Below, one piece after another: positions 6,116 to 43,228 of a stretch of 64,000 nt of DNA (positions are counted from its first letter, which is position 1; each line of letters begins with the position of its first letter). The position numbers were made by a program, and so were the translations under genes. Under the pieces are notes generated by a model, which saw only the letters and a list, made by a program, of their open reading frames with translations, did not search any database and was not told where the DNA came from. This DNA is from an uncultured Nitrososphaerales archaeon (GTDB lineage: Archaea; Thermoproteota; Nitrososphaeria; Nitrososphaerales; Gagatemarchaeaceae), in the NCBI GenBank assembly GCA_963706445.1, contig OY970160.1:1088001-1152000 (forward strand), written 5' to 3'.

Positions 6116-6208
6116 CTGCCATCACACTCGAACAGGTGTTATTTAAGTAGCATTAGATATCGTATTAGATAATACTTATATTCCCAATTCCTAAGGGATT
6201 AGGGAGAC

Positions 6209-14153: not shown

Positions 14154-14582
14154 TCACATCTCAAAGTCAGGCGGACGGTAGCGTGCCTGGACCATCTCCT
14201 TCAGGGAGGTGACCAGCGCGAAGCTCGAGTTGACGATGTCGGTTTGGGTGATTATTCCGACTAGCCTACCTTCGTCCATCACAGGGAGCTTCTTCACTCC
14301 GGCGTCAGCCATGGTCTTGGCCGCCACTTCGAGCCGTTCTTCTGGGGACACTGTGATGAGCTTCTTGCGCCCTACTGTGACCGTGGTCGAGTCTGGGTCC
14401 ATTCCCTTCGCCACGAACCTCGAGATGTCCCCTTCTGTGAGGATTCCAACGGGGTTCGGACCCTTCAAGACGACCAGCGCTCCGATCCTCCACTTGGCCA
14501 TTGCTCTTGCAGCCTCACTGACGGTTGCACCCGCTTCGGTCGTCCTCACTTTTGTCGTCATGACGTCCTTGACGTAGATCAT
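14154..14582 (-). CDS. CBS domain pair protein
   Basis: VKDVMT, VGILTEGDI, LVGIITQTDI. Confidence 0.9.
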   Translation of the reverse strand: MIYVKDVMTTKVRTTEAGATVSEAARAMAKWRIGALVVLKGPNPVGILTEGDISRFVAKGMDPDSTTVTVGRKKLITVSPEERLEVAAKTMADAGVKKLPVMDEGRLVGIITQTDIVNSSFALVTSLKEMVQARYRPPDFEM

Positions 14583-14586
14583 GACG

Positions 14587-15042
14587 TCATCTCGCAATCA
14601 GAACTGCGCATGGTGAGTGGTTCACCAAACCGGACGAGACGCTTCCGAGAATCAACTTCCTGAATCCGGTCATCCCCCTCGTCCCCGCGATTATCAGGTC
14701 TGCCTTCTCAGCGGCAGCGAGCTCGACCAGCGCCTGGACGACGGATGGTGCTTCGATCAGTTCACCCTTGGCTCTGATCCCCTGCTCATTTGCCAGCTGC
14801 ACTCCTCTTGCGAGTACTCCCTTGGCTGATTCCCTCTTCGCCTCCTCGAGCTCGGTGTAGTCAGGGACTGGTATCCCCGAACCTCCGGTGAACCCGATGG
14901 TAGGGGAGGAGAACACGTGCACTAGAATCACATCCGACCCGAACTTCGAAGAGATCGACCCGGCGAGCCTGACTGCATTCTCAGAGTCCTTCGAACCGTC
15001 GAAGGCCACGAGCACCTTGGCGAACTCATTGTTGCTGACCAT
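14587..15042 (-). CDS. universal stress protein (UspA family)
   Basis: VLVAFDGS, DLIIAGTRG, LGSVS...SPCAVL. Confidence 0.95.
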   Translation of the reverse strand: MVSNNEFAKVLVAFDGSKDSENAVRLAGSISSKFGSDVILVHVFSSPTIGFTGGSGIPVPDYTELEEAKRESAKGVLARGVQLANEQGIRAKGELIEAPSVVQALVELAAAEKADLIIAGTRGMTGFRKLILGSVSSGLVNHSPCAVLIAR

Positions 15043-15090
15043 GTTCTCGGTTGCTCGGAGTGCATGTCATTATTTAATGCGGGGGGGCTA

Positions 15091-15106
15091 TTCCCAGGAT
15101 TGAGAA
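15091..15106. promoter_or_regulatory. palindromic site TTCCCA-GGAT-TGAGAA upstream of the usp promoter
   Basis: 13 nt upstream of minus-strand TTAAATA (15077-15071). Confidence 0.65.
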
Positions 15107-15243
15107 ACGGCGGCACGATACCGCTTGGTGTGTGGATTGCTCACTGTTTGGGGCAAACTCTGACCTAAGCAATGAGGGAGACTCGCATCGTGGGATTCGT
15201 CGAATGAAACGATTCTCTTCCTCCAGCGGTTCCCCAAAACTGA

Positions 15244-15259
15244 TTATCAGATACGAAAA
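15244..15259. promoter_or_regulatory. weaker copy of the same motif (TTATCA-GATA-CGAAAA)
   Basis: 13 nt upstream of TTATAT at 15273. Confidence 0.4.
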
Positions 15260-15301
15260 TCGTCTCAGGACGTTATATGCCCGCCAATGTCGGCACGGTC
15301 T

Positions 15302-15862
15302 ATGGAAAACGTAACTGCAACACGAACCACCAATGGCAAGTGGGCCGGGAGATTCATCTGGGCCTCTGTCATTCAGGGACTCATCGCAGTCATAGCCACC
15401 ATCCTCATTATCGAGCCTTGGAGCTTCTTTGGCATCAACTCCTACTTCTCGCCATCAAAGGTCATCGCAGCAAATGGAGCCGGGACCTGGATGTTCACCG
15501 GTTACATCGCGTTCTTGGTCGTAGGCGTAGTCGCGACAGCAGTAACCGCTATCTTCTACTTCTACATTGAAGGCATCCAAGGCAAAGTGTACAAAGGATT
15601 CTCGAACCTGCTAGCTTGGGGCCACCTACTCTTCATGAACGTCGGAGTCGCCGGGGCCATGATCATAATGATGTATCAAGGCTACCTGGCCGGCGTTGCC
15701 GCGACCCCAATTGCAAGCGGCGGCCTGGGATACAACGCAGGGCAGATTCACGTCAATATTCTAAGCTGGACGGTCGACCCAATCGGGGGGCTCATCCTCC
15801 TCGCGTGCGTCGGATCCATACTTGGTGGTCTCGGGTACTTTCTGAGAAGCGCGTCCAAGTAG
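15302..15862 (+). CDS. 4-TM membrane protein resembling the C-terminal helices of heme-copper oxidase subunit I
   Basis: TWMFTGY...VVG.V..A..A.FY.Y.....GK.Y....LAWGHL.FMNVG; ATG 15302 fits TATA spacing (ORF track starts at 15287). Confidence 0.6.
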   Translation: MENVTATRTTNGKWAGRFIWASVIQGLIAVIATILIIEPWSFFGINSYFSPSKVIAANGAGTWMFTGYIAFLVVGVVATAVTAIFYFYIEGIQGKVYKGFSNLLAWGHLLFMNVGVAGAMIIMMYQGYLAGVAATPIASGGLGYNAGQIHVNILSWTVDPIGGLILLACVGSILGGLGYFLRSASK

Positions 15863-15940
15863 GACACGCTTCCTCCCTGTTTTTCAGTATCGGCAGCGCC
15901 TGAATAAACTCAAATACGCTGAGACTCCGCTTTCAACCGT

Positions 15941-16303
15941 TTGGAGATTACCGACCAGTCTAGAGTCCAGGCGCTAGTCCAGGGACTCGCAGATGAATAC
16001 TCGAGGAAGATACTGCTCTCCGCCATACCGAAGGCGAAGTCAGTGGAGGACATGAGCAGGGAGAACGACATCCCGCTCAGCACCTGCTACAGGAGGGTGC
16101 ACGAGCTGCTGGACGGGCAGATACTTGTCGTCGAGAAGATAATCGTGACCCCCGATGGGAAGAAGTACGAGCTCCTCAGGAGCGCATTCAGGTCAGTCAG
16201 CGTGTCATTCGACGGCGGGGTTATGAAGGTCGACGCGACCATCAATGAGGATGTCGCAGAGAAACTCAGAAGGATGTGGCTGTCCATGAGGGAGACGGCG
16301 TGA
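15941..16303 (+). CDS. archaeal winged-helix (ArsR-like) transcriptional regulator
   Basis: LADEYSRKIL, KSVEDMS...IPLSTCYRRVHEL. Confidence 0.85.
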   Translation: MEITDQSRVQALVQGLADEYSRKILLSAIPKAKSVEDMSRENDIPLSTCYRRVHELLDGQILVVEKIIVTPDGKKYELLRSAFRSVSVSFDGGVMKVDATINEDVAEKLRRMWLSMRETA

Positions 16304-16319
16304 TTGCCACCCATGGGAA
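16304..16319. promoter_or_regulatory. motif copy TTGCCA-CCCA-TGGGAA
   Basis: 12 nt upstream of TTTTAA at 16332. Confidence 0.55.
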
Positions 16320-16362
16320 TCGGCTCCAAGGTTTTAAGGGGATGCGGAGGTGAGTTCGCATA

Positions 16363-16641
16363 GTGTTAGATCCAATCTATCTTGACGTAGCGCAAGCGCT
16401 AATCCTCATATTCGGTGGCGTCGTAGTCTTCTACGCACTCCGCTCGTACCGGAGGACGAAGAGCCAATCGATGCTGCTCTTGGCGCTGGGGTTCGCCTGC
16501 GTCGCCATCGGGGCGGTAGTGGCGGGAATCATCTACAACCTGAATACAGCAGACCTCAGCACACCGGTGACCGTGCAGGCGTACAGCCAGGCACTCGGCT
16601 TCCTCATCATCCTGTTTTCGCTGGCCAGAGCCAAGAGCTGA
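16363..16641 (+). CDS. small 3-TM membrane protein
   Basis: Hydrophobic; A.RSYRRT.S.SML.LALGF pattern recalled from proteins paired with archaeal wHTH genes. Confidence 0.75.
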   Translation: MLDPIYLDVAQALILIFGGVVVFYALRSYRRTKSQSMLLLALGFACVAIGAVVAGIIYNLNTADLSTPVTVQAYSQALGFLIILFSLARAKS

Positions 16642-16666
16642 AGATCTCAGGGCCGGGTGAGTCCCA

Positions 16667-16682
16667 GTTCCAATCCTGGGAA
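16667..16682. promoter_or_regulatory. motif copy GTTCCA-ATCC-TGGGAA
   Basis: 13 nt upstream of TTTTAA at 16696. Confidence 0.6.
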
Positions 16683-16730
16683 CTGTGAGGTCGACTTTTA
16701 ACCCGGCCGGGCGGCAGGACACAGATCGCG

Positions 16731-19415
16731 ATGATTGAAAAGTTCGAGGGGGACGTCGTCCTCAAGGACGGGTCCCTGGTCCATGTGAGAAGAGCCGCAG
16801 AGGAAGACAGAGTGCTCCTTGGAGATTTCCTCGACGGCCTTGCGGCGGGAACGATCGCCTCGAGGTTCCCAGGAAAGGCAGCCAGGGGGAGGGAGCTCCT
16901 GCCAGAGATATTTTCGCCCGACTCCAAGCTGAGCCTGATAGCCCTCAGAGACCAAAAGGTGGTGGCAGAGGCCGACTACAGGAAGACTGCGGCGAAGTCG
17001 GCGGTCGCAGGGGTCGCAGTATCAGAGGCATACCAGAGGAAAGGACTGGGCACGATTCTCCTCGCACAGCTGTCACAGGCAGCTGCGGCTGCGGGGATCA
17101 CAGACTTCACCATAATCGTCCCGGCCGACGCGCACTACAAACTGAATTTCGTACAGGAGATGGGATATCCTGTCCACGTCGGCGCCCCCAGGGGGTTCGT
17201 CCAGGTCACGTTTCCCACCTCGATCAAGCCGGAAGGGCTGGAGGCCTTCGAGAAGAGCGAGGCGTACTACGCCTCGACGGCCGTCGGATATTTTCTAAAG
17301 CCTGAGAGCATCGCCGTCATCGGTGCTTCGAGGGAAAAGAACTCCATAGGCGGAGCGCTCTTCGCGAACATCATCGAAGGGGGATTCAAAGGGCCGGTCT
17401 ATCCGGTGAACAGGGAAGCAGGCTACGTGCAGTCGGTGGCCGCCTTCAAGTCAGTGAGCGACTGTCCAGGCCCAGTCGGCCTGGCGTTCGTTGTGGTGCC
17501 CGCAAGGTTCGTCCCGTCGGTGGTCAGGGAGTGCGCCCAGAAGGGGGTCAGGGCGATAGTCGTGATTTCCTCAGGGTTCGCCGAAGTGGGCGGGGATGGC
17601 AAGAAGCTGCAGGAGGAGCTGGTCGGGGTCTGCAGAGAGACGGGCATCCGAATGATAGGCCCCAACTGCATGGGGATAATCAACACGGAGGGCAACGTCA
17701 TGCTCAACGGGCAGTTCTCCCCTGTTAAGCCCACCCAGGGTGACGTTGGGTTCCTTTCGCAGTCCGGGGCGCTCGGCTACGCGATAATCGACCAGATGGG
17801 GCGCCTTGGGCTTGGGATGTCGAGCTTTGTCTCGGTGGGGAACAAGGCGGACATCTCTGGGAACGACTTGATACAGTACTGGGAGAACGACGAGAAGACT
17901 GGGGTAATCCTCCTTCATCTGGAGTCCTTCGGGCACCCGAGGAAGTTCGCCAGGTTGGCGAAGAGGATTGCGAGGAAGAAGCCCATGGTTATCGTGAAGA
18001 GCGGGAGGTCTGCCGCGGGGTTCAGGGGGACCCAATCCCACACGGGCGCCATCGTCGCCTCCTCGGACATCACCGTGGACGCCCTCTTCAGGCAGTCCGG
18101 GGTGTCTCGGACCGACACCCTGGAAGAGATGTTCGACCTGGCGGCGTTCTATTCGACTCAGCCCCTCCCCAGGGGGGACAGGGTCGCGATCATCACGAAC
18201 GCCGGGGGGCCGGGCATCCTCGCTGCGGACGCATGCGAGAGCCTTGGGCTGAAGGTCCCCGTGCTCTCCGAGAAGACAAAGGCCGAACTCAGGAAGTTCC
18301 TCCTCCCCATCGCAGGGACCAGCAATCCGGTCGACATGACCTCCGTGGCATCGGGGGATGACTACTCCAGCGCAATCCGCGTCATCTCCAAGGATCAGAA
18401 CGTTGACGCTCTAATCGTGATATTCATACCTCCAATCGCAGTACGAACAGAAGACGTAGCAAGGGGGATCGTCGGCGCGGTCGGGGACCTGAAGGGGGAG
18501 ATGCCCGTGATCGCGACGTTCATGGCCGCCAAGGGGATATCGGGTCAGCTATCCGGCGGGTCGGTGAAGGTCCCAGCCTACCAATTCCCCGAGTCGGCTG
18601 CCCGGGTCCTCGCCCATGCGACCAACAGGAGGAGATGGCTCGACGCACCAAGGGGGAAGGTGATCGAGTATCCCGAGGCCAGAAGGCTCGAAGCGGCGGC
18701 GCTCGTCTCGAGGGCCCTTGAGGAAGGGAGAGGATGGCTAACTCCGGCGGAGAACCATGAGCTGCTGTCGTGCTACGGCATAAGGGAGGCGAGGAGTGCC
18801 ACCGTGGACACCCCCGAGGCAGCCTCCAATGCGGCTAGGGAGATCGGCGGGAGAGTGGCGCTGAAGGCGGCGGCCCCCGGACTGGTCCACAAATCGGAGG
18901 TTGGAGGGGTAAGGACAGGGCTGGCACCAGGCGAAGTGGAGGCGGCCGCGGTGGAGATGGAACAGAGGCTCGAAGGTCAGGGGATCAAGGACGCTCGGTT
19001 CGTGGTCCAGGAAATGGTCGAGGAAGGCGTTGAGATGTTCGTCGGCATGACGAACGACCCCAGCTTCGGGCCGCTCTTGGCCTGCGGGGCTGGAGGGAAG
19101 CTGGTCGAACTCATCAAGGACGTCTCAGTCAAGCTGACACCGCTGAATGACGTCGATGCTGCGGAGATGGTACGGTCCCTGAAGACATTCCCGGTCCTGG
19201 ACGGGTACAGGGGGGACCCAAAGCGAGACGTCGGTGCGTTGGAAGACACGATTCTCAGGCTGGGAGCCCTCGTCGAGGACATCCCAGAGCTCGCTGAGCT
19301 GGACCTCAACCCGGTGTTTGTCCTGAACAAAGGGAAAGGAGCCGTCGTCGCCGACGCCAGGATAAGGGTCGCCGAGGGGGACCTTCCCCTCCCTCTGGGC
19401 GCCAAGAAAAGATAG
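16731..19415 (+). CDS. N-terminal GNAT fused to ADP-forming acyl-CoA synthetase alpha/beta (Pat/ACD family)
   Basis: GNAT: VVLKDG, YQRKGLGT; ACD: PESIAVIGAS, GPNCMG, SQSGA, SHTGA, ATP-grasp HKSEVGGV, LDLNP. Confidence 0.9.
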   Translation: MIEKFEGDVVLKDGSLVHVRRAAEEDRVLLGDFLDGLAAGTIASRFPGKAARGRELLPEIFSPDSKLSLIALRDQKVVAEADYRKTAAKSAVAGVAVSEAYQRKGLGTILLAQLSQAAAAAGITDFTIIVPADAHYKLNFVQEMGYPVHVGAPRGFVQVTFPTSIKPEGLEAFEKSEAYYASTAVGYFLKPESIAVIGASREKNSIGGALFANIIEGGFKGPVYPVNREAGYVQSVAAFKSVSDCPGPVGLAFVVVPARFVPSVVRECAQKGVRAIVVISSGFAEVGGDGKKLQEELVGVCRETGIRMIGPNCMGIINTEGNVMLNGQFSPVKPTQGDVGFLSQSGALGYAIIDQMGRLGLGMSSFVSVGNKADISGNDLIQYWENDEKTGVILLHLESFGHPRKFARLAKRIARKKPMVIVKSGRSAAGFRGTQSHTGAIVASSDITVDALFRQSGVSRTDTLEEMFDLAAFYSTQPLPRGDRVAIITNAGGPGILAADACESLGLKVPVLSEKTKAELRKFLLPIAGTSNPVDMTSVASGDDYSSAIRVISKDQNVDALIVIFIPPIAVRTEDVARGIVGAVGDLKGEMPVIATFMAAKGISGQLSGGSVKVPAYQFPESAARVLAHATNRRRWLDAPRGKVIEYPEARRLEAAALVSRALEEGRGWLTPAENHELLSCYGIREARSATVDTPEAASNAAREIGGRVALKAAAPGLVHKSEVGGVRTGLAPGEVEAAAVEMEQRLEGQGIKDARFVVQEMVEEGVEMFVGMTNDPSFGPLLACGAGGKLVELIKDVSVKLTPLNDVDAAEMVRSLKTFPVLDGYRGDPKRDVGALEDTILRLGALVEDIPELAELDLNPVFVLNKGKGAVVADARIRVAEGDLPLPLGAKKR

Positions 19416-40120: not shown

Positions 40121-40825
40121 CTAGAGAGGAAGTTCCTCGATGATCTTCGCACCGGAGCTTGTGCCTATTCTGTCAGCTCCTGCCCTGACCATCTCCAGGG
40201 CCTTGGCGAGTGTCCCAATTCCCCCGGCCGCCTTCACTCCTGTCCCCTTCCTGAGCGTCATTCGGATTAGGGCGACGTCCGCCGCGGTCGCGCCTCCTGT
40301 CCCGAATCCGGTCGAGGTCTTGACATAATTCGCACCTGCCCGCTCGGCGATCCGCGCCCCTCTTACCTTCTCTTCGTCCGTCAGGAAGCAGCACTCAAGT
40401 ATCACCTTGAGAATCACTCCAGAGCGCCCGCAGCAGGCCGCAAGTTGGTTGACGTCGGCGAAGAAGGCGGTGTCGTCCCCAGATTTTAACGCGCCGATGT
40501 TCGAGACCATATCTATCTCACTGGCCCCGTCTGCGATGGCTCTCCGTGCTTCCATCAGCTTTACCTCCGTTGCGCTCGTGCCTTGGGGGAAACTGACGAC
40601 GGAGCAGACCCTGGTGGCAGTGCCCGCTAGTCGGTCGGCTGCTAGCCTCACGTGGAGTGGGTTGACGCACACGCTCCAGAGGTCGTAGCTCGTCGCCTCG
40701 TCGCAGAGGCTTTCTATCTCCGCCGGTGTGGCAAATGGTTTGAGCAGGGTGTGGTCGATCATCCTGGCGAGGTCGGATCTCCTCGTGAGATGGATTGGCG
40801 GGACCAGCTCTCCCATAGTCTTCAA
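40121..40825 (-). CDS. deoC: deoxyribose-phosphate aldolase
   Basis: IDHTLLKP, EIDMV, KVILE, KTSTGF, VKAAGGI, RIGTS. Confidence 0.97.
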   Translation of the reverse strand: MKTMGELVPPIHLTRRSDLARMIDHTLLKPFATPAEIESLCDEATSYDLWSVCVNPLHVRLAADRLAGTATRVCSVVSFPQGTSATEVKLMEARRAIADGASEIDMVSNIGALKSGDDTAFFADVNQLAACCGRSGVILKVILECCFLTDEEKVRGARIAERAGANYVKTSTGFGTGGATAADVALIRMTLRKGTGVKAAGGIGTLAKALEMVRAGADRIGTSSGAKIIEELPL

Positions 40826-40865
40826 ACCGGGCCCACCAGATGGCCTTCATAAACCGCCAACACAA

Positions 40866-40881
40866 TTCTCAAGGCTGAAAA
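40866..40881. promoter_or_regulatory. motif copy TTCTCA-AGGC-TGAAAA (deoC side)
   Basis: 12 nt upstream of minus-strand TTTATGAA starting at 40853. Confidence 0.5.
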
Positions 40882-40915: not shown

Positions 40916-40931
40916 TTCTCAATCTTGGGAA
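40916..40931. promoter_or_regulatory. motif copy TTCTCA-ATCT-TGGGAA (CBS side)
   Basis: 12 nt upstream of TTTATAA at 40944. Confidence 0.65.
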
Positions 40932-40985
40932 TTGTGTCCGTTGTTTATAATGAAGAGCGGTCGTTTTTCTTTTCTCGGCGATAGA

Positions 40986-41795
40986 ATGCAGAGGCATGCA
41001 GATCCGATGGCGAGGGAGTTCATGAGCAAGGGAGTAGTATCAATCAATCAGGATTCGACCGTCAAGAAGGCGATCGTGACCATGGACGAACACAACATCG
41101 GGAGCGTCGTGCTCACCGACAGCCTAGGCCCCTGCGGCGTCTTCACCGAAAGGGATCTAGTGAGCAGGGTCCTCGCCAGAGGAAAGGACCCCGAGGAGAC
41201 GTCTCTGTCCGAGGTCGCGTCCCCGAAGTTCCCGTCAATCGTCCCCACTTTGACACTGGAGGAGACCGCGAGGGCGATGATTGACAGGAAGAGCAGGCTG
41301 ATGGTCTTCGAAGGAGCTGACCTGGCGGGGATGGTCACCCCCACGGACATCGTTAGGGTGCTCAAAGGAGTGGAGTATGATTTCTCAATCCTTCGGGTGA
41401 TATCCACCCGGATGGTGACCGTGGACCCTGATTCCCATCTCGACGAAGTCGTCAAGCTGATGGACGAGCGCAAGACAGGTAGCGTACTACTAACCGAAGA
41501 CGGGAGATGGACGGGGATTTTCACCGAAAGGGACCTGGTCAAGCGGGTCCTCGCAGCTGGCAGGAGGCTCGACGTGAAGGTGAAGGAGGTCGCGACGACA
41601 CCACTCGTGACGGCGCCACCAGGGATCTTCGGCAGGGAAGTCGCGGGCATCATGTCTCTTCACGGGTTCAAGCGCCTGCCACTCGCCATTGAAGGGGAGG
41701 GGGTAGGAATCGTGACAGCCAGGGACCTCGTCGAAGCCTACGCCCTCGCCAAGAAGCTGCGCCCTCCGCGGGTCGACTGGGTCCAGTGGAACTGA
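40986..41795 (+). CDS. protein with four CBS domains
   Basis: GVFTERDL, GMVTPTDI, GIFTERDL, GIVTARDL. Confidence 0.9.
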   Translation: MQRHADPMAREFMSKGVVSINQDSTVKKAIVTMDEHNIGSVVLTDSLGPCGVFTERDLVSRVLARGKDPEETSLSEVASPKFPSIVPTLTLEETARAMIDRKSRLMVFEGADLAGMVTPTDIVRVLKGVEYDFSILRVISTRMVTVDPDSHLDEVVKLMDERKTGSVLLTEDGRWTGIFTERDLVKRVLAAGRRLDVKVKEVATTPLVTAPPGIFGREVAGIMSLHGFKRLPLAIEGEGVGIVTARDLVEAYALAKKLRPPRVDWVQWN

Positions 41796-41807: not shown

Positions 41808-43130
41808 CTAGGCTAATTTCTGGAGACGCTTATTGCGGCGGATGAGACTCTCCAGCTTGCGCCCGCCGATTTCAGAGGCCTCGAACCTGACGCGGGCTAC
41901 GGGTCTCTTGATGTGGAACATCCGTGTGAGGTCAGATGGGGTCCCGAGGACCACAGCGTCCGCTGCCACGCCGTTGATGCTCCTTTCAAGCTCCTTCAGC
42001 TGTCCCTTGCTGTAGCCGAGCGCGGGGATTACCTTGCCAAGCTTTGGGAAGCGCTCGTAGGCCCTCTTGATCGAACCCACCGCTTTGCTCCTCGGGTCGA
42101 CCATGGTGCCCTTCGCAGCCTTCACCGCCACCGCACCTGCTGCCTCTGATAGCCCGCCGTGAGTCACGGTCGGACCGTCCTCCACGACGACCACCCTCTT
42201 CCCCTTCACTAGCTCTGGCTTGTCCAGGGTAGCCAAAGAGTTGGTCCTGACTATCACCGCCCTGGGATTCAGGGCACGGCAAGCCTTCTCCACCTTCAGG
42301 ACTGCCTGCCGAGAGGCGACATTCACCTTGTTCACCACGATGGCGTCGGCCAGGCGCACGTTCGTCTCGCCGGGGTAGTATCTCGACTCGTCTCCCGGCC
42401 TCATGGGGTCGACGACAGTTATTGTGAGGTCGGGGAGGTAGAAGCTGAAGTCGTTGTTCCCCCCGTCCCAGATGACGACGTCCCCTTCCTTCTCGGCTTG
42501 GGCGAGGATGGCTCCATAGTCGACTCCTGCGTAGACGACGATGCCGTTGTCGATGTGCCCCTCATACTCCTCCCTCTCCTCGATGGTCGCGTGGAATCGG
42601 TCGAGGTCGTCGTGGGTGGCGAACCTCTGTACCGCGATGCTCAGGTCCACGTACGGCATCGGGTGCCTCACCACCACGGGCTTCAGGCCCATCTTCAACA
42701 GTATCCTGACGACCATCCGACTGATGGTGCTCTTGCCGGCTCCTGTCCTGTCGGCGACCACAGCCACCACGGGCTTGGACGACTTCAACATCGTGTCCCT
42801 GGGTCCGAGGAGATGGAAGCTCGCCCCCTTTGACTGGGCGATGGCGGCCAAACTCATGACGTACGCCCCGGAGACGTCGCTGTAGGCGAAGTAGACATTC
42901 TGCACCCCGTGCTTCTCGATCAGCCCTGCCAGTTCCTCCTCGGGATGGATCGGTATCCCTTCGGGGTAGAGGCGCCCGGCCACCGAGGCAGGGTAGGTCC
43001 GGTTCGAAATGTAGGGGATCTGGGTGGCGGTGAAGGCGACGACCTTGTATTCGGGGTTGTCCCGGAAGAAGACATTGAAATCATGGAAGTCGCGGCCGGC
43101 AGCACCCATTATGATCACGTTTCTTGTCAT
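41808..43130 (-). CDS. COG2403 P-loop protein, arginine synthetase ArcE-like (cDPG synthetase superfamily)
   Basis: IMGAAGRDFH, VAFTATQIP, RTGAGKS, RHPMPY, EEREEYE, WDGGNND, EDGPT.THGG. Confidence 0.8.
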   Translation of the reverse strand: MTRNVIIMGAAGRDFHDFNVFFRDNPEYKVVAFTATQIPYISNRTYPASVAGRLYPEGIPIHPEEELAGLIEKHGVQNVYFAYSDVSGAYVMSLAAIAQSKGASFHLLGPRDTMLKSSKPVVAVVADRTGAGKSTISRMVVRILLKMGLKPVVVRHPMPYVDLSIAVQRFATHDDLDRFHATIEEREEYEGHIDNGIVVYAGVDYGAILAQAEKEGDVVIWDGGNNDFSFYLPDLTITVVDPMRPGDESRYYPGETNVRLADAIVVNKVNVASRQAVLKVEKACRALNPRAVIVRTNSLATLDKPELVKGKRVVVVEDGPTVTHGGLSEAAGAVAVKAAKGTMVDPRSKAVGSIKRAYERFPKLGKVIPALGYSKGQLKELERSINGVAADAVVLGTPSDLTRMFHIKRPVARVRFEASEIGGRKLESLIRRNKRLQKLA

Positions 43131-43228
43131 CCTGCAAGACACCTGAATGGCCTCCCTCCCGTGGCGTATATAATTGGAGAGCCGATTCCTATCCTTGAGA
43201 ACGCCGGGGTGTCTGAGCAGCGAGCTTC

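Follow-up and report, generated by a model that had tools for sequence, protein, structure and literature searches.

A 16-bp palindrome of consensus TTCTCA-N4-TGAGAA, placed at a fixed distance upstream of the TATA box, is with high confidence a genuine regulatory site that defines a regulon in an uncultured soil archaeon of the order Nitrososphaerales. The starting point was a stretch of 64,000 nucleotides, here termed the window, which corresponds to bases 1088001–1152000 of a single contig of 1,817,757 bp with 58% G+C; the whole of this contig was scanned. Here, we focus on the palindrome, on the genes that it precedes, and on a winged helix-turn-helix (wHTH) protein of 120 amino acids, P0003, which is encoded at 15941–16303 of the window and by which the palindrome is probably bound. 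The best explanation of the data as a whole, a palindrome regulon that is read by the wHTH protein, works by activation and serves a stress programme, is on balance slightly favoured.

In the window alone, a loose form of the pattern with up to two mismatches is not significant (6 matches against 3.2 expected), and the test was therefore made on the whole genome. There, the exact pattern TTYYCA-N4-TGRRAA occurs 16 times, against once for the same pattern read backwards. A palindromic position weight matrix (PWM) built from 17 seed sites gives 81 matches at a score of 12 or more, against 20 in the reversed genome. Composite sites, defined as a PWM match of at least 12 with an AT-rich box at a gap of 11–13 nt, number 24, whereas column-permuted palindromic PWMs (n = 59) yield a mean of 2.4 and a maximum of 15. 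AT-rich 8-mers downstream of the motif form a sharp peak at gaps of 10–13 nt. Sites scoring 14 or more (n = 41) comprise 25 composite promoter sites and 16 others, 13 of which lie inside crude open reading frame (ORF) calls; these 16 are in line with a chance level of about 10. An original prediction, made from the letters of the window, had proposed a PWM scan and the offset to TATA as its check, and the enrichment found genome-wide is clear.

Some 25–33 promoters in the genome share the same order of elements: the palindrome TTCTCA-N4-TGAGAA is followed by TCG and, at a fixed 12–13 nt, by a TATA box. Across 33 aligned sites, C5 and A15–A16 are present in 100% and G12 in 97%; the promoter-side extension TCG is asymmetric, with G19 in 91%, and the TT of the TATA box falls at +14/+15, 13 nt after the motif. 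All 33 are dyad-symmetric and end 12–13 nt before the TATA box, without overlap of the TATA box or of the transcription factor B (TFB) recognition element (BRE). The BRE region of these promoters is poor in A, at 0.09–0.21 against 0.39–0.48 at −4/−5 in 64 general promoters. The distance from the first base of the TATA-like box to the start codon is about 27–48 nt; transcripts should accordingly have short leaders or none, and the palindrome occupies roughly −59 to −44 relative to the transcription start.

Within the window, palindromes had been predicted at 15091, 16304, 16667, 40866 and 40916, and all five are present (PWM 14.6–24.0); a further copy at 43186 had not been noticed before. The sites and their genes, in window coordinates, are as follows.

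14154–15042, minus strand: usp-CBS target operon, encoding a universal stress protein (USP; Usp, 14587–15042) and a CBS-pair protein (14154–14597), both by Pfam.
15091–15106, minus strand: palindrome, PWM 22.5, with the TATA box at 15070–15078 (minus strand), 12 nt downstream; promoter of the usp-CBS operon.
15244–15259, plus strand: weak palindrome, PWM 7.0, with a TTATCA half-site, TCG, a 12-nt gap and a TATA-like box at 15272–15279; upstream of the membrane-protein gene.
15302–15862, plus strand: membrane protein with no Pfam match and no assigned function; upstream of the wHTH gene.
15881–15896, in the wHTH gene's own promoter: degenerate copy of the palindrome, PWM 6.8, with one good half-site and a 14-nt gap; excluded from the count.
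15941–16303, plus strand: wHTH protein P0003, candidate reader of the palindrome.
16304–16319, plus strand: palindrome, PWM 14.6, starting directly after the wHTH stop codon, with the TATA box at 16332–16339; promoter of the DUF7521 gene.
16363–16641, plus strand: DUF7521 small membrane protein (Pfam), the conserved partner downstream of the wHTH gene.
16667–16682, plus strand: palindrome, PWM 15.3, with the TATA box at 16695–16702; promoter of the Pat-like gene.
16731–19415, plus strand: Pat-like gene, combining GNAT and ADP-forming acyl-CoA synthetase (Pfam).
40866–40881, minus strand: palindrome, PWM 19.4, with the TATA box at 40846–40853; promoter of deoC (40121–40825).
40916–40931, plus strand: palindrome, PWM 24.0, the best in the genome, with the TATA box at 40944–40951; promoter of a four-CBS-domain protein (40986–41795).
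43186–43201, minus strand: palindrome, PWM 16.6, with the TATA box at 43166–43173; promoter of the gene (41808–43142) for a 444-amino-acid protein with a weak CobW/HypB-type NTPase match.

In every good copy the gap is 12 nt to an 8-mer starting C/G/A-TT, which equals 13 nt to the TT. The predicted gap of 12–13 nt in every case thus holds for all good copies and for the weak copy at 15244, and fails at 15881 (14 nt). Of these two weaker copies, both listed in the original prediction, the first survives on its geometry, with orthologous weak sites retained in three related genomes (G007, G002 and G005; genomes, loci and families carry the labels G, L and f throughout), and the second is discarded as degenerate. 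The notion of a cluster with two distant copies also needs enlarging: the regulon is real, but it comprises about 30 promoters genome-wide and not a local group of seven sites. The position of its TATA box makes 15302 the likely start of the membrane-protein gene, rather than the called 15287. This protein (called at 15287–15862) has a paralogue at genome positions 1368817–1369359, and neither belongs to a known family; the paralogue has a palindrome of PWM 13, and its TATA-like box lies 68 nt from the called start.

The targets in the window are therefore the Usp-CBS operon, the membrane protein, DUF7521, the Pat-like protein, DeoC, the four-CBS protein and the weak CobW/HypB-type protein. 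Across the genome, targets in redox and central metabolism include a GltD/SudA-like flavoprotein, glutamate dehydrogenase (GDH), the gamma-delta subunit of pyruvate:ferredoxin oxidoreductase (PFOR), a fumarate-reductase-like flavoprotein and a molybdopterin oxidoreductase. Antioxidant, sulfur-relay and export functions are represented by VKOR, DsrE-like and TusA-like proteins, TatA and a Dps-like ferritin, and transport and sensing by Amt and another CBS protein; the remainder include DUF1684, an SDR, an SBP_bac_5 protein, an NHL protein and several membrane or secreted proteins that fall in no family. The theme of the regulon is one of nucleotide-sensing stress proteins together with oxygen-sensitive, redox and antioxidant functions. 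The motif is linked to three regulator genes, which encode the wHTH protein, an HTH_10 protein and an ArsR protein; the HTH_10 and ArsR genes count among the targets outside the window, and the ArsR gene shares one palindrome with the divergent gene of a small zinc protein. This palindrome, at genome 1085893–1085908, has TATA boxes 13 nt away on either side, one for the 60-amino-acid B-box-like zinc protein and one, on the opposite strand, for the ArsR regulator, and therefore seems to serve both directions. Promoters with the motif form a second island at genome 799900–810500 (sites at 799907, 800417, 800491, 806544 and 809420); it holds DsrE-like and TusA-like genes and an ArsR-like gene at 802651–802848.

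Conservation in orthologous promoters, another check that had been proposed, gives the same picture, with the site kept at the HTH_10, usp and DUF7521 promoters. For the HTH_10 gene, 17 of 17 promoters have it at an unchanged spacing, those of 16 orthologues and of a second gene copy in G005. An alignment of 10 orthologous usp promoters (A2) shows invariant half-sites, G19 and TATA box, with drift in the 4-nt spacer and the flanks, and the DUF7521 site at 16304 has a counterpart in the same position in G155 and in at least 13 genomes of the genus. Across the genus, the exact pattern is commoner than its backwards control, typically at 5–19 against 0–1. Beyond the genus, the excess extends to families f4 (64 against 14) and f7 (191 against 35), to many f12 genomes, and to f14 and f15; no excess over control was found in f2, f6, f8, f9, f11 or f13. 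AmoA is present in representatives of f4, f12 and f15 and was not found in the source genome or in f7, so that the order includes ammonia oxidisers and the source organism is a non-oxidising relative.

The original prediction placed the wHTH protein at the centre of the cluster as its driver, and this protein is indeed the best-supported candidate, on its phyletic match to the motif, composite sites in its own promoters, clustering of sites around it, covariation in a paralogue and its neighbouring genes. A wHTH profile finds a homologue in 29/32 genomes of f1, 7/7 of f4, 7/7 of f7, 32/32 of f12 and 30/31 of f15, and in every family with a motif excess. Families with no excess mostly lack it (0/1 in f2, 0/2 in f6, 0/1 in f8, 1/9 in f11 and 0/3 in f13). 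One genome, G017, had appeared to be an exception, with a motif excess and no wHTH protein; its count comes largely from one repeated element before a multi-copy gene. Three near-identical copies of TTTTCA-N4-TGAAAA with shared flanks (L169, L171 and L173) precede a repeated gene of 312 amino acids there, and the element is probably an insertion sequence, one end of which resembles the motif.

The promoters of wHTH orthologues carry the full composite in f7 (L111 and L112), f17 (L074), f5 (L082) and some f1 genomes (G012 and G008). In 15 genomes outside the genus, 8 exact sites fall within 94 kb around wHTH homologues, against 1.03 expected from the genomes' own site densities. Genes for USP, CBS, Pat-like and DUF7521 proteins neighbour wHTH homologues across f1, f4, f7 and f12, and USP promoters beside these homologues in f7 and f12 have the palindrome, the 12-nt gap and the TATA box, with a variant TTATCA half-site in f12. 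The DUF7521 gene follows the wHTH gene in f1, f5, f7, f10, f14 and f17, and the two could form a module of regulator and membrane partner. A palindrome is seen between these two genes in six families (window 15941–16641; loci L056–L077 and L110–L112).

A group of wHTH paralogues in ammonia oxidisers (L130, L131 and L136; genomes G106, G133 and G109) has the recognition helix SSVYKK in place of STCYRR. Their own promoters carry TTCTAA-N4-TTAGAA 12–14 nt upstream of the TATA box, a palindrome that occurs 10 times against 1 for the control in four ammonia-oxidiser genomes and not at all in the source genome. The changes in helix and half-site look like a matched change in protein and DNA, and the SSVYKK paralogues and TTCTAA-N4-TTAGAA form a small separate regulon.

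An AlphaFold2 model of P0003 (predicted local distance difference test score of 83.6) contains a wHTH fold with an extra beta-sheet and a C-terminal helix. Foldseek matches the model to Phr (2p4w, E = 5e-5), then to PH1932 and then to ArsR, SmtB and CadC. Dimers of the ArsR/SmtB type read inverted repeats one helical turn apart. At the sequence level, P0003 scores 24.0 bits against Pfam HTH_20, below the cut-off of 27; many of its close homologues carry a precomputed PF12840 label, and their database names are Thaumarchaeota, Nitrososphaerota or Nitrososphaerales. Sequence searches of NCBIfam and of the PDB gave no match for P0003 or for the HTH_10 protein, P0001. As regards the metal-binding or effector-binding residues of ArsR/SmtB sensors, no conserved cluster of Cys or His is evident in the family alignment of P0003 (A1), in which residues were not inspected singly. 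P0003 has a single cysteine, which lies in the recognition helix at a position that holds Ala, Ser or Val in other families; a thiol switch is therefore unlikely to be general.

Several observations weigh against the reading of the palindrome by the wHTH protein in a stress regulon. Family f9 has the wHTH protein and no motif excess. The wHTH proteins form a broad family, of which ammonia oxidisers have as many as 11 paralogues; this makes the phyletic match a coarse one, and related genomes are not independent samples. In the source genome and in most of the genus, the promoter of the wHTH gene itself lacks a good site. Genome G003, which is 90% complete, keeps three good sites, and neither the wHTH nor the DUF7521 gene was found there. 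In ammonia oxidisers, 16 exact sites were sampled, of which only about 4 have the promoter geometry. Many exact TTYYCA-N4-TGRRAA sites in these organisms stand directly before GATCAT (L156, L157 and L160; G106 and G109), which suggests a longer or different element there; conservation in ammonia oxidisers is therefore claimed only beside wHTH orthologues. As regards gene content, the second USP gene of the source genome has no site, and none was seen near two HSP20 matches, although the scan stopped short of their promoters because the Pfam matches sit in the C-terminal part of longer ORFs. Finally, start codons are uncertain because genes were called crudely, as longest ORFs.

The palindrome may instead be read by another factor, mainly the HTH_10 protein, with the wHTH protein as a target or neighbour only, and we consider this unlikely. 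P0001 is a Bat/DmsR-type protein of 214 amino acids (genome 279228–279872) with a C-x10-C-x2-C motif that would suit a redox sensor. Its gene has the best-conserved site of all, as would fit autoregulation, and G003 retains the HTH_10 gene along with its sites. However, the complete genome G011 retains the sites at its usp and DUF7521 promoters, and searches there and in representatives of f4, f12, f15, f9 and f10 found no HTH_10 homologue; of these five families, the first three have a motif excess. Its absence from complete or near-complete genomes that keep the sites led us to judge P0001 an unlikely reader. Among 24 other genomes sampled from the genus, only 6 have a close orthologue of the ArsR protein (P0002), which was therefore rejected as a reader and is taken as a target.

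In the HTH_10 promoter, the main motif is joined by a second palindrome of different sequence, CCCTAA-N4-TTAGGG, together with a half-site in the start region; these elements could serve as the protein's own operator. This second palindrome occurs 14 times in the genome, against 3 for the control, at up to one mismatch (genome 279959, 226002, 236173, 443608, 444401, 1165213, 1229587, 1311004 and 1551314; window 6189–6204). It lies mostly between the TATA box and the start codon, which is a repressor position, and co-occurs with the main motif at the HTH_10 promoter, the PFOR promoter and one membrane-protein promoter; in f15 and f7 it is found just after the TATA box of wHTH homologues (L121, L122 and L128). 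It is likely to be the operator of another regulator, which is possibly the HTH_10 protein.

For the TTCTCA-N4-TGAGAA regulon, we propose that the palindrome and the promoter-side TCG would together form the binding site of a dimeric transcription factor. Bound at about −59 to −44, immediately upstream of a BRE that is unusually poor in A, the factor would help TFB and the TATA-binding protein (TBP) to assemble and so activate transcription. Its core targets would be USP and CBS-domain proteins, the DUF7521 membrane partner and the Pat-like acetyltransferase, and the wider set of targets may point to a programme for energy, redox or low-oxygen stress. Activation is the more probable sign of regulation. 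Binding upstream of BRE/TATA goes with activation in TrmBL1/Tgr, Ptr2 and TFB-RF1 (PMC4158304) and in OxsR (PMC9426492), and the palindrome lies, as the original prediction had it, where archaeal activators bind, at a fixed distance upstream of TATA (PMC4158304; PMC9426492).

That the site is the operator of a repressor or of a dual-function regulator, which would hinder TFB and TBP or bend the DNA, is improbable in our judgement. The majority of characterised archaeal regulators are repressors (PMC4158304), and the closest structural relative of P0003, Phr, is a repressor by its NCBIfam name and by general knowledge. The TATA boxes of several targets look strong as well, so that dependence on an activator is not evident, and this counts against activation. 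However, no composite site overlaps the TATA box, the BRE or the start region, while known repressor sites lie at or downstream of TATA and sites upstream of the BRE go with activation (PMC9426492; PMC4158304). The rigid 12–13 nt spacing and the A-poor BRE also fit recruitment.

The pattern is highly improbable as a non-regulatory feature, whether chance, a promoter element general to the lineage or the relic of a repeated mobile element: the lack of significance in the window alone and the repeated element of G017 would allow it, but composite sites are 10-fold above permuted motifs, flanks and spacer are unique at each site, half-sites are kept in orthologous promoters while flanks drift, and about 30 of roughly 1900 genes carry the site, which therefore is not a general promoter element.

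The signal to which an activating wHTH protein would respond can be named only tentatively. The original prediction had named low oxygen or energy stress. Gene content points to energy, redox or low oxygen, and in Nitrosopumilus-like sponge symbionts USP, CBS and PII proteins and two regulators are reported to be induced by hypoxia (bioRxiv 10.1101/2023.02.27.530229). A bolder and rather doubtful extension would make the system an order-wide stress switch of the Nitrososphaerales, ammonia oxidisers included. A mini-Phr-like wHTH protein would activate USP, CBS and redox genes under limitation of oxygen or energy and be gated by its DUF7521 partner, for example by sequestration at the membrane; its paralogues would have diversified by a helix change from RR to KK matched to a half-site change from C to A.

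No described transcription-factor regulon for Nitrososphaerales was found in the searchable literature, nor did that literature yield anything pertinent on the motif string or on thaumarchaeal promoter motifs. The palindrome would belong to a known kind of archaeal element, the upstream activator site, in a lineage for which no described regulon was found. The Nitrososphaerales dominate nitrification and are abundant in soils and oceans. What is gained is a cis-element, a strict promoter architecture and a named candidate regulator whose orthologues occur in ammonia oxidisers, a group with some cultured lineages. Stress sensing in these archaea, possibly of low oxygen or energy shortage, becomes directly testable; the rigid spacing of 12–13 nt offers a clean system in which to ask how archaeal activators contact TFB and TBP, and the paired change in helix and half-site is a natural specificity experiment.

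Comparison with known systems highlights both similarities and differences. Mycobacterial DosR, to which the original prediction had likened the regulon, also has a palindromic site upstream of many promoters and USP among its targets. DosR belongs to the two-component response regulators and acts on bacterial promoters, whereas the candidate factors here (wHTH, HTH_10 and ArsR) have no receiver domain, and of two USP genes just one is a target; the analogy is therefore only a thematic one. Phr of Pyrococcus furiosus (PDB 2p4w; also PH1932, 1uly/2cwe) is the best structural match to the P0003 model, with a wHTH fold, further strands and a C-terminal helix, at a sequence identity of only 12–16%. 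Phr has about 200 amino acids and represses at the start site.

OxsR of Haloferax volcanii, a single-domain thiol sensor of the TrmB family, is like P0003 a small regulator with a single wHTH domain (PMC9426492). Its motif upstream of BRE/TATA is required for the activation of stress genes, and the position of the site sets the sign of regulation (PMC9426492). OxsR uses a repeat rich in CG and has a conserved cysteine, Cys24, at its dimer interface, whereas the only cysteine of P0003 is in the recognition helix. The mechanism proposed here is that of Ptr2 of M. jannaschii and TFB-RF1 of P. furiosus, which recruit TBP or TFB from binding sites immediately upstream of the core promoter (cited in PMC4158304). 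Ptr2 is an Lrp/AsnC protein with two sites and TFB-RF1 serves a single operon; unlike the regulon described here, neither has a palindrome that recurs at a rigid spacing across the genome.

TrmBL1/Tgr and the Thermococcales glycolytic motif TATCAC-N5-GTGATA likewise combine a 6-nt inverted repeat with a wHTH dimer that reads it, in a multi-operon regulon where a site upstream of BRE/TATA goes with activation, as is proposed here (PMC4158304). The present palindrome differs from that motif in sequence and in its N4 spacer, and P0003 is a single-domain wHTH protein of 120 amino acids with no sugar-binding domain and no TrmB match in Pfam. In the regulon described here, the good sites all stand at one fixed distance upstream of TATA, and none is in a repressor position.

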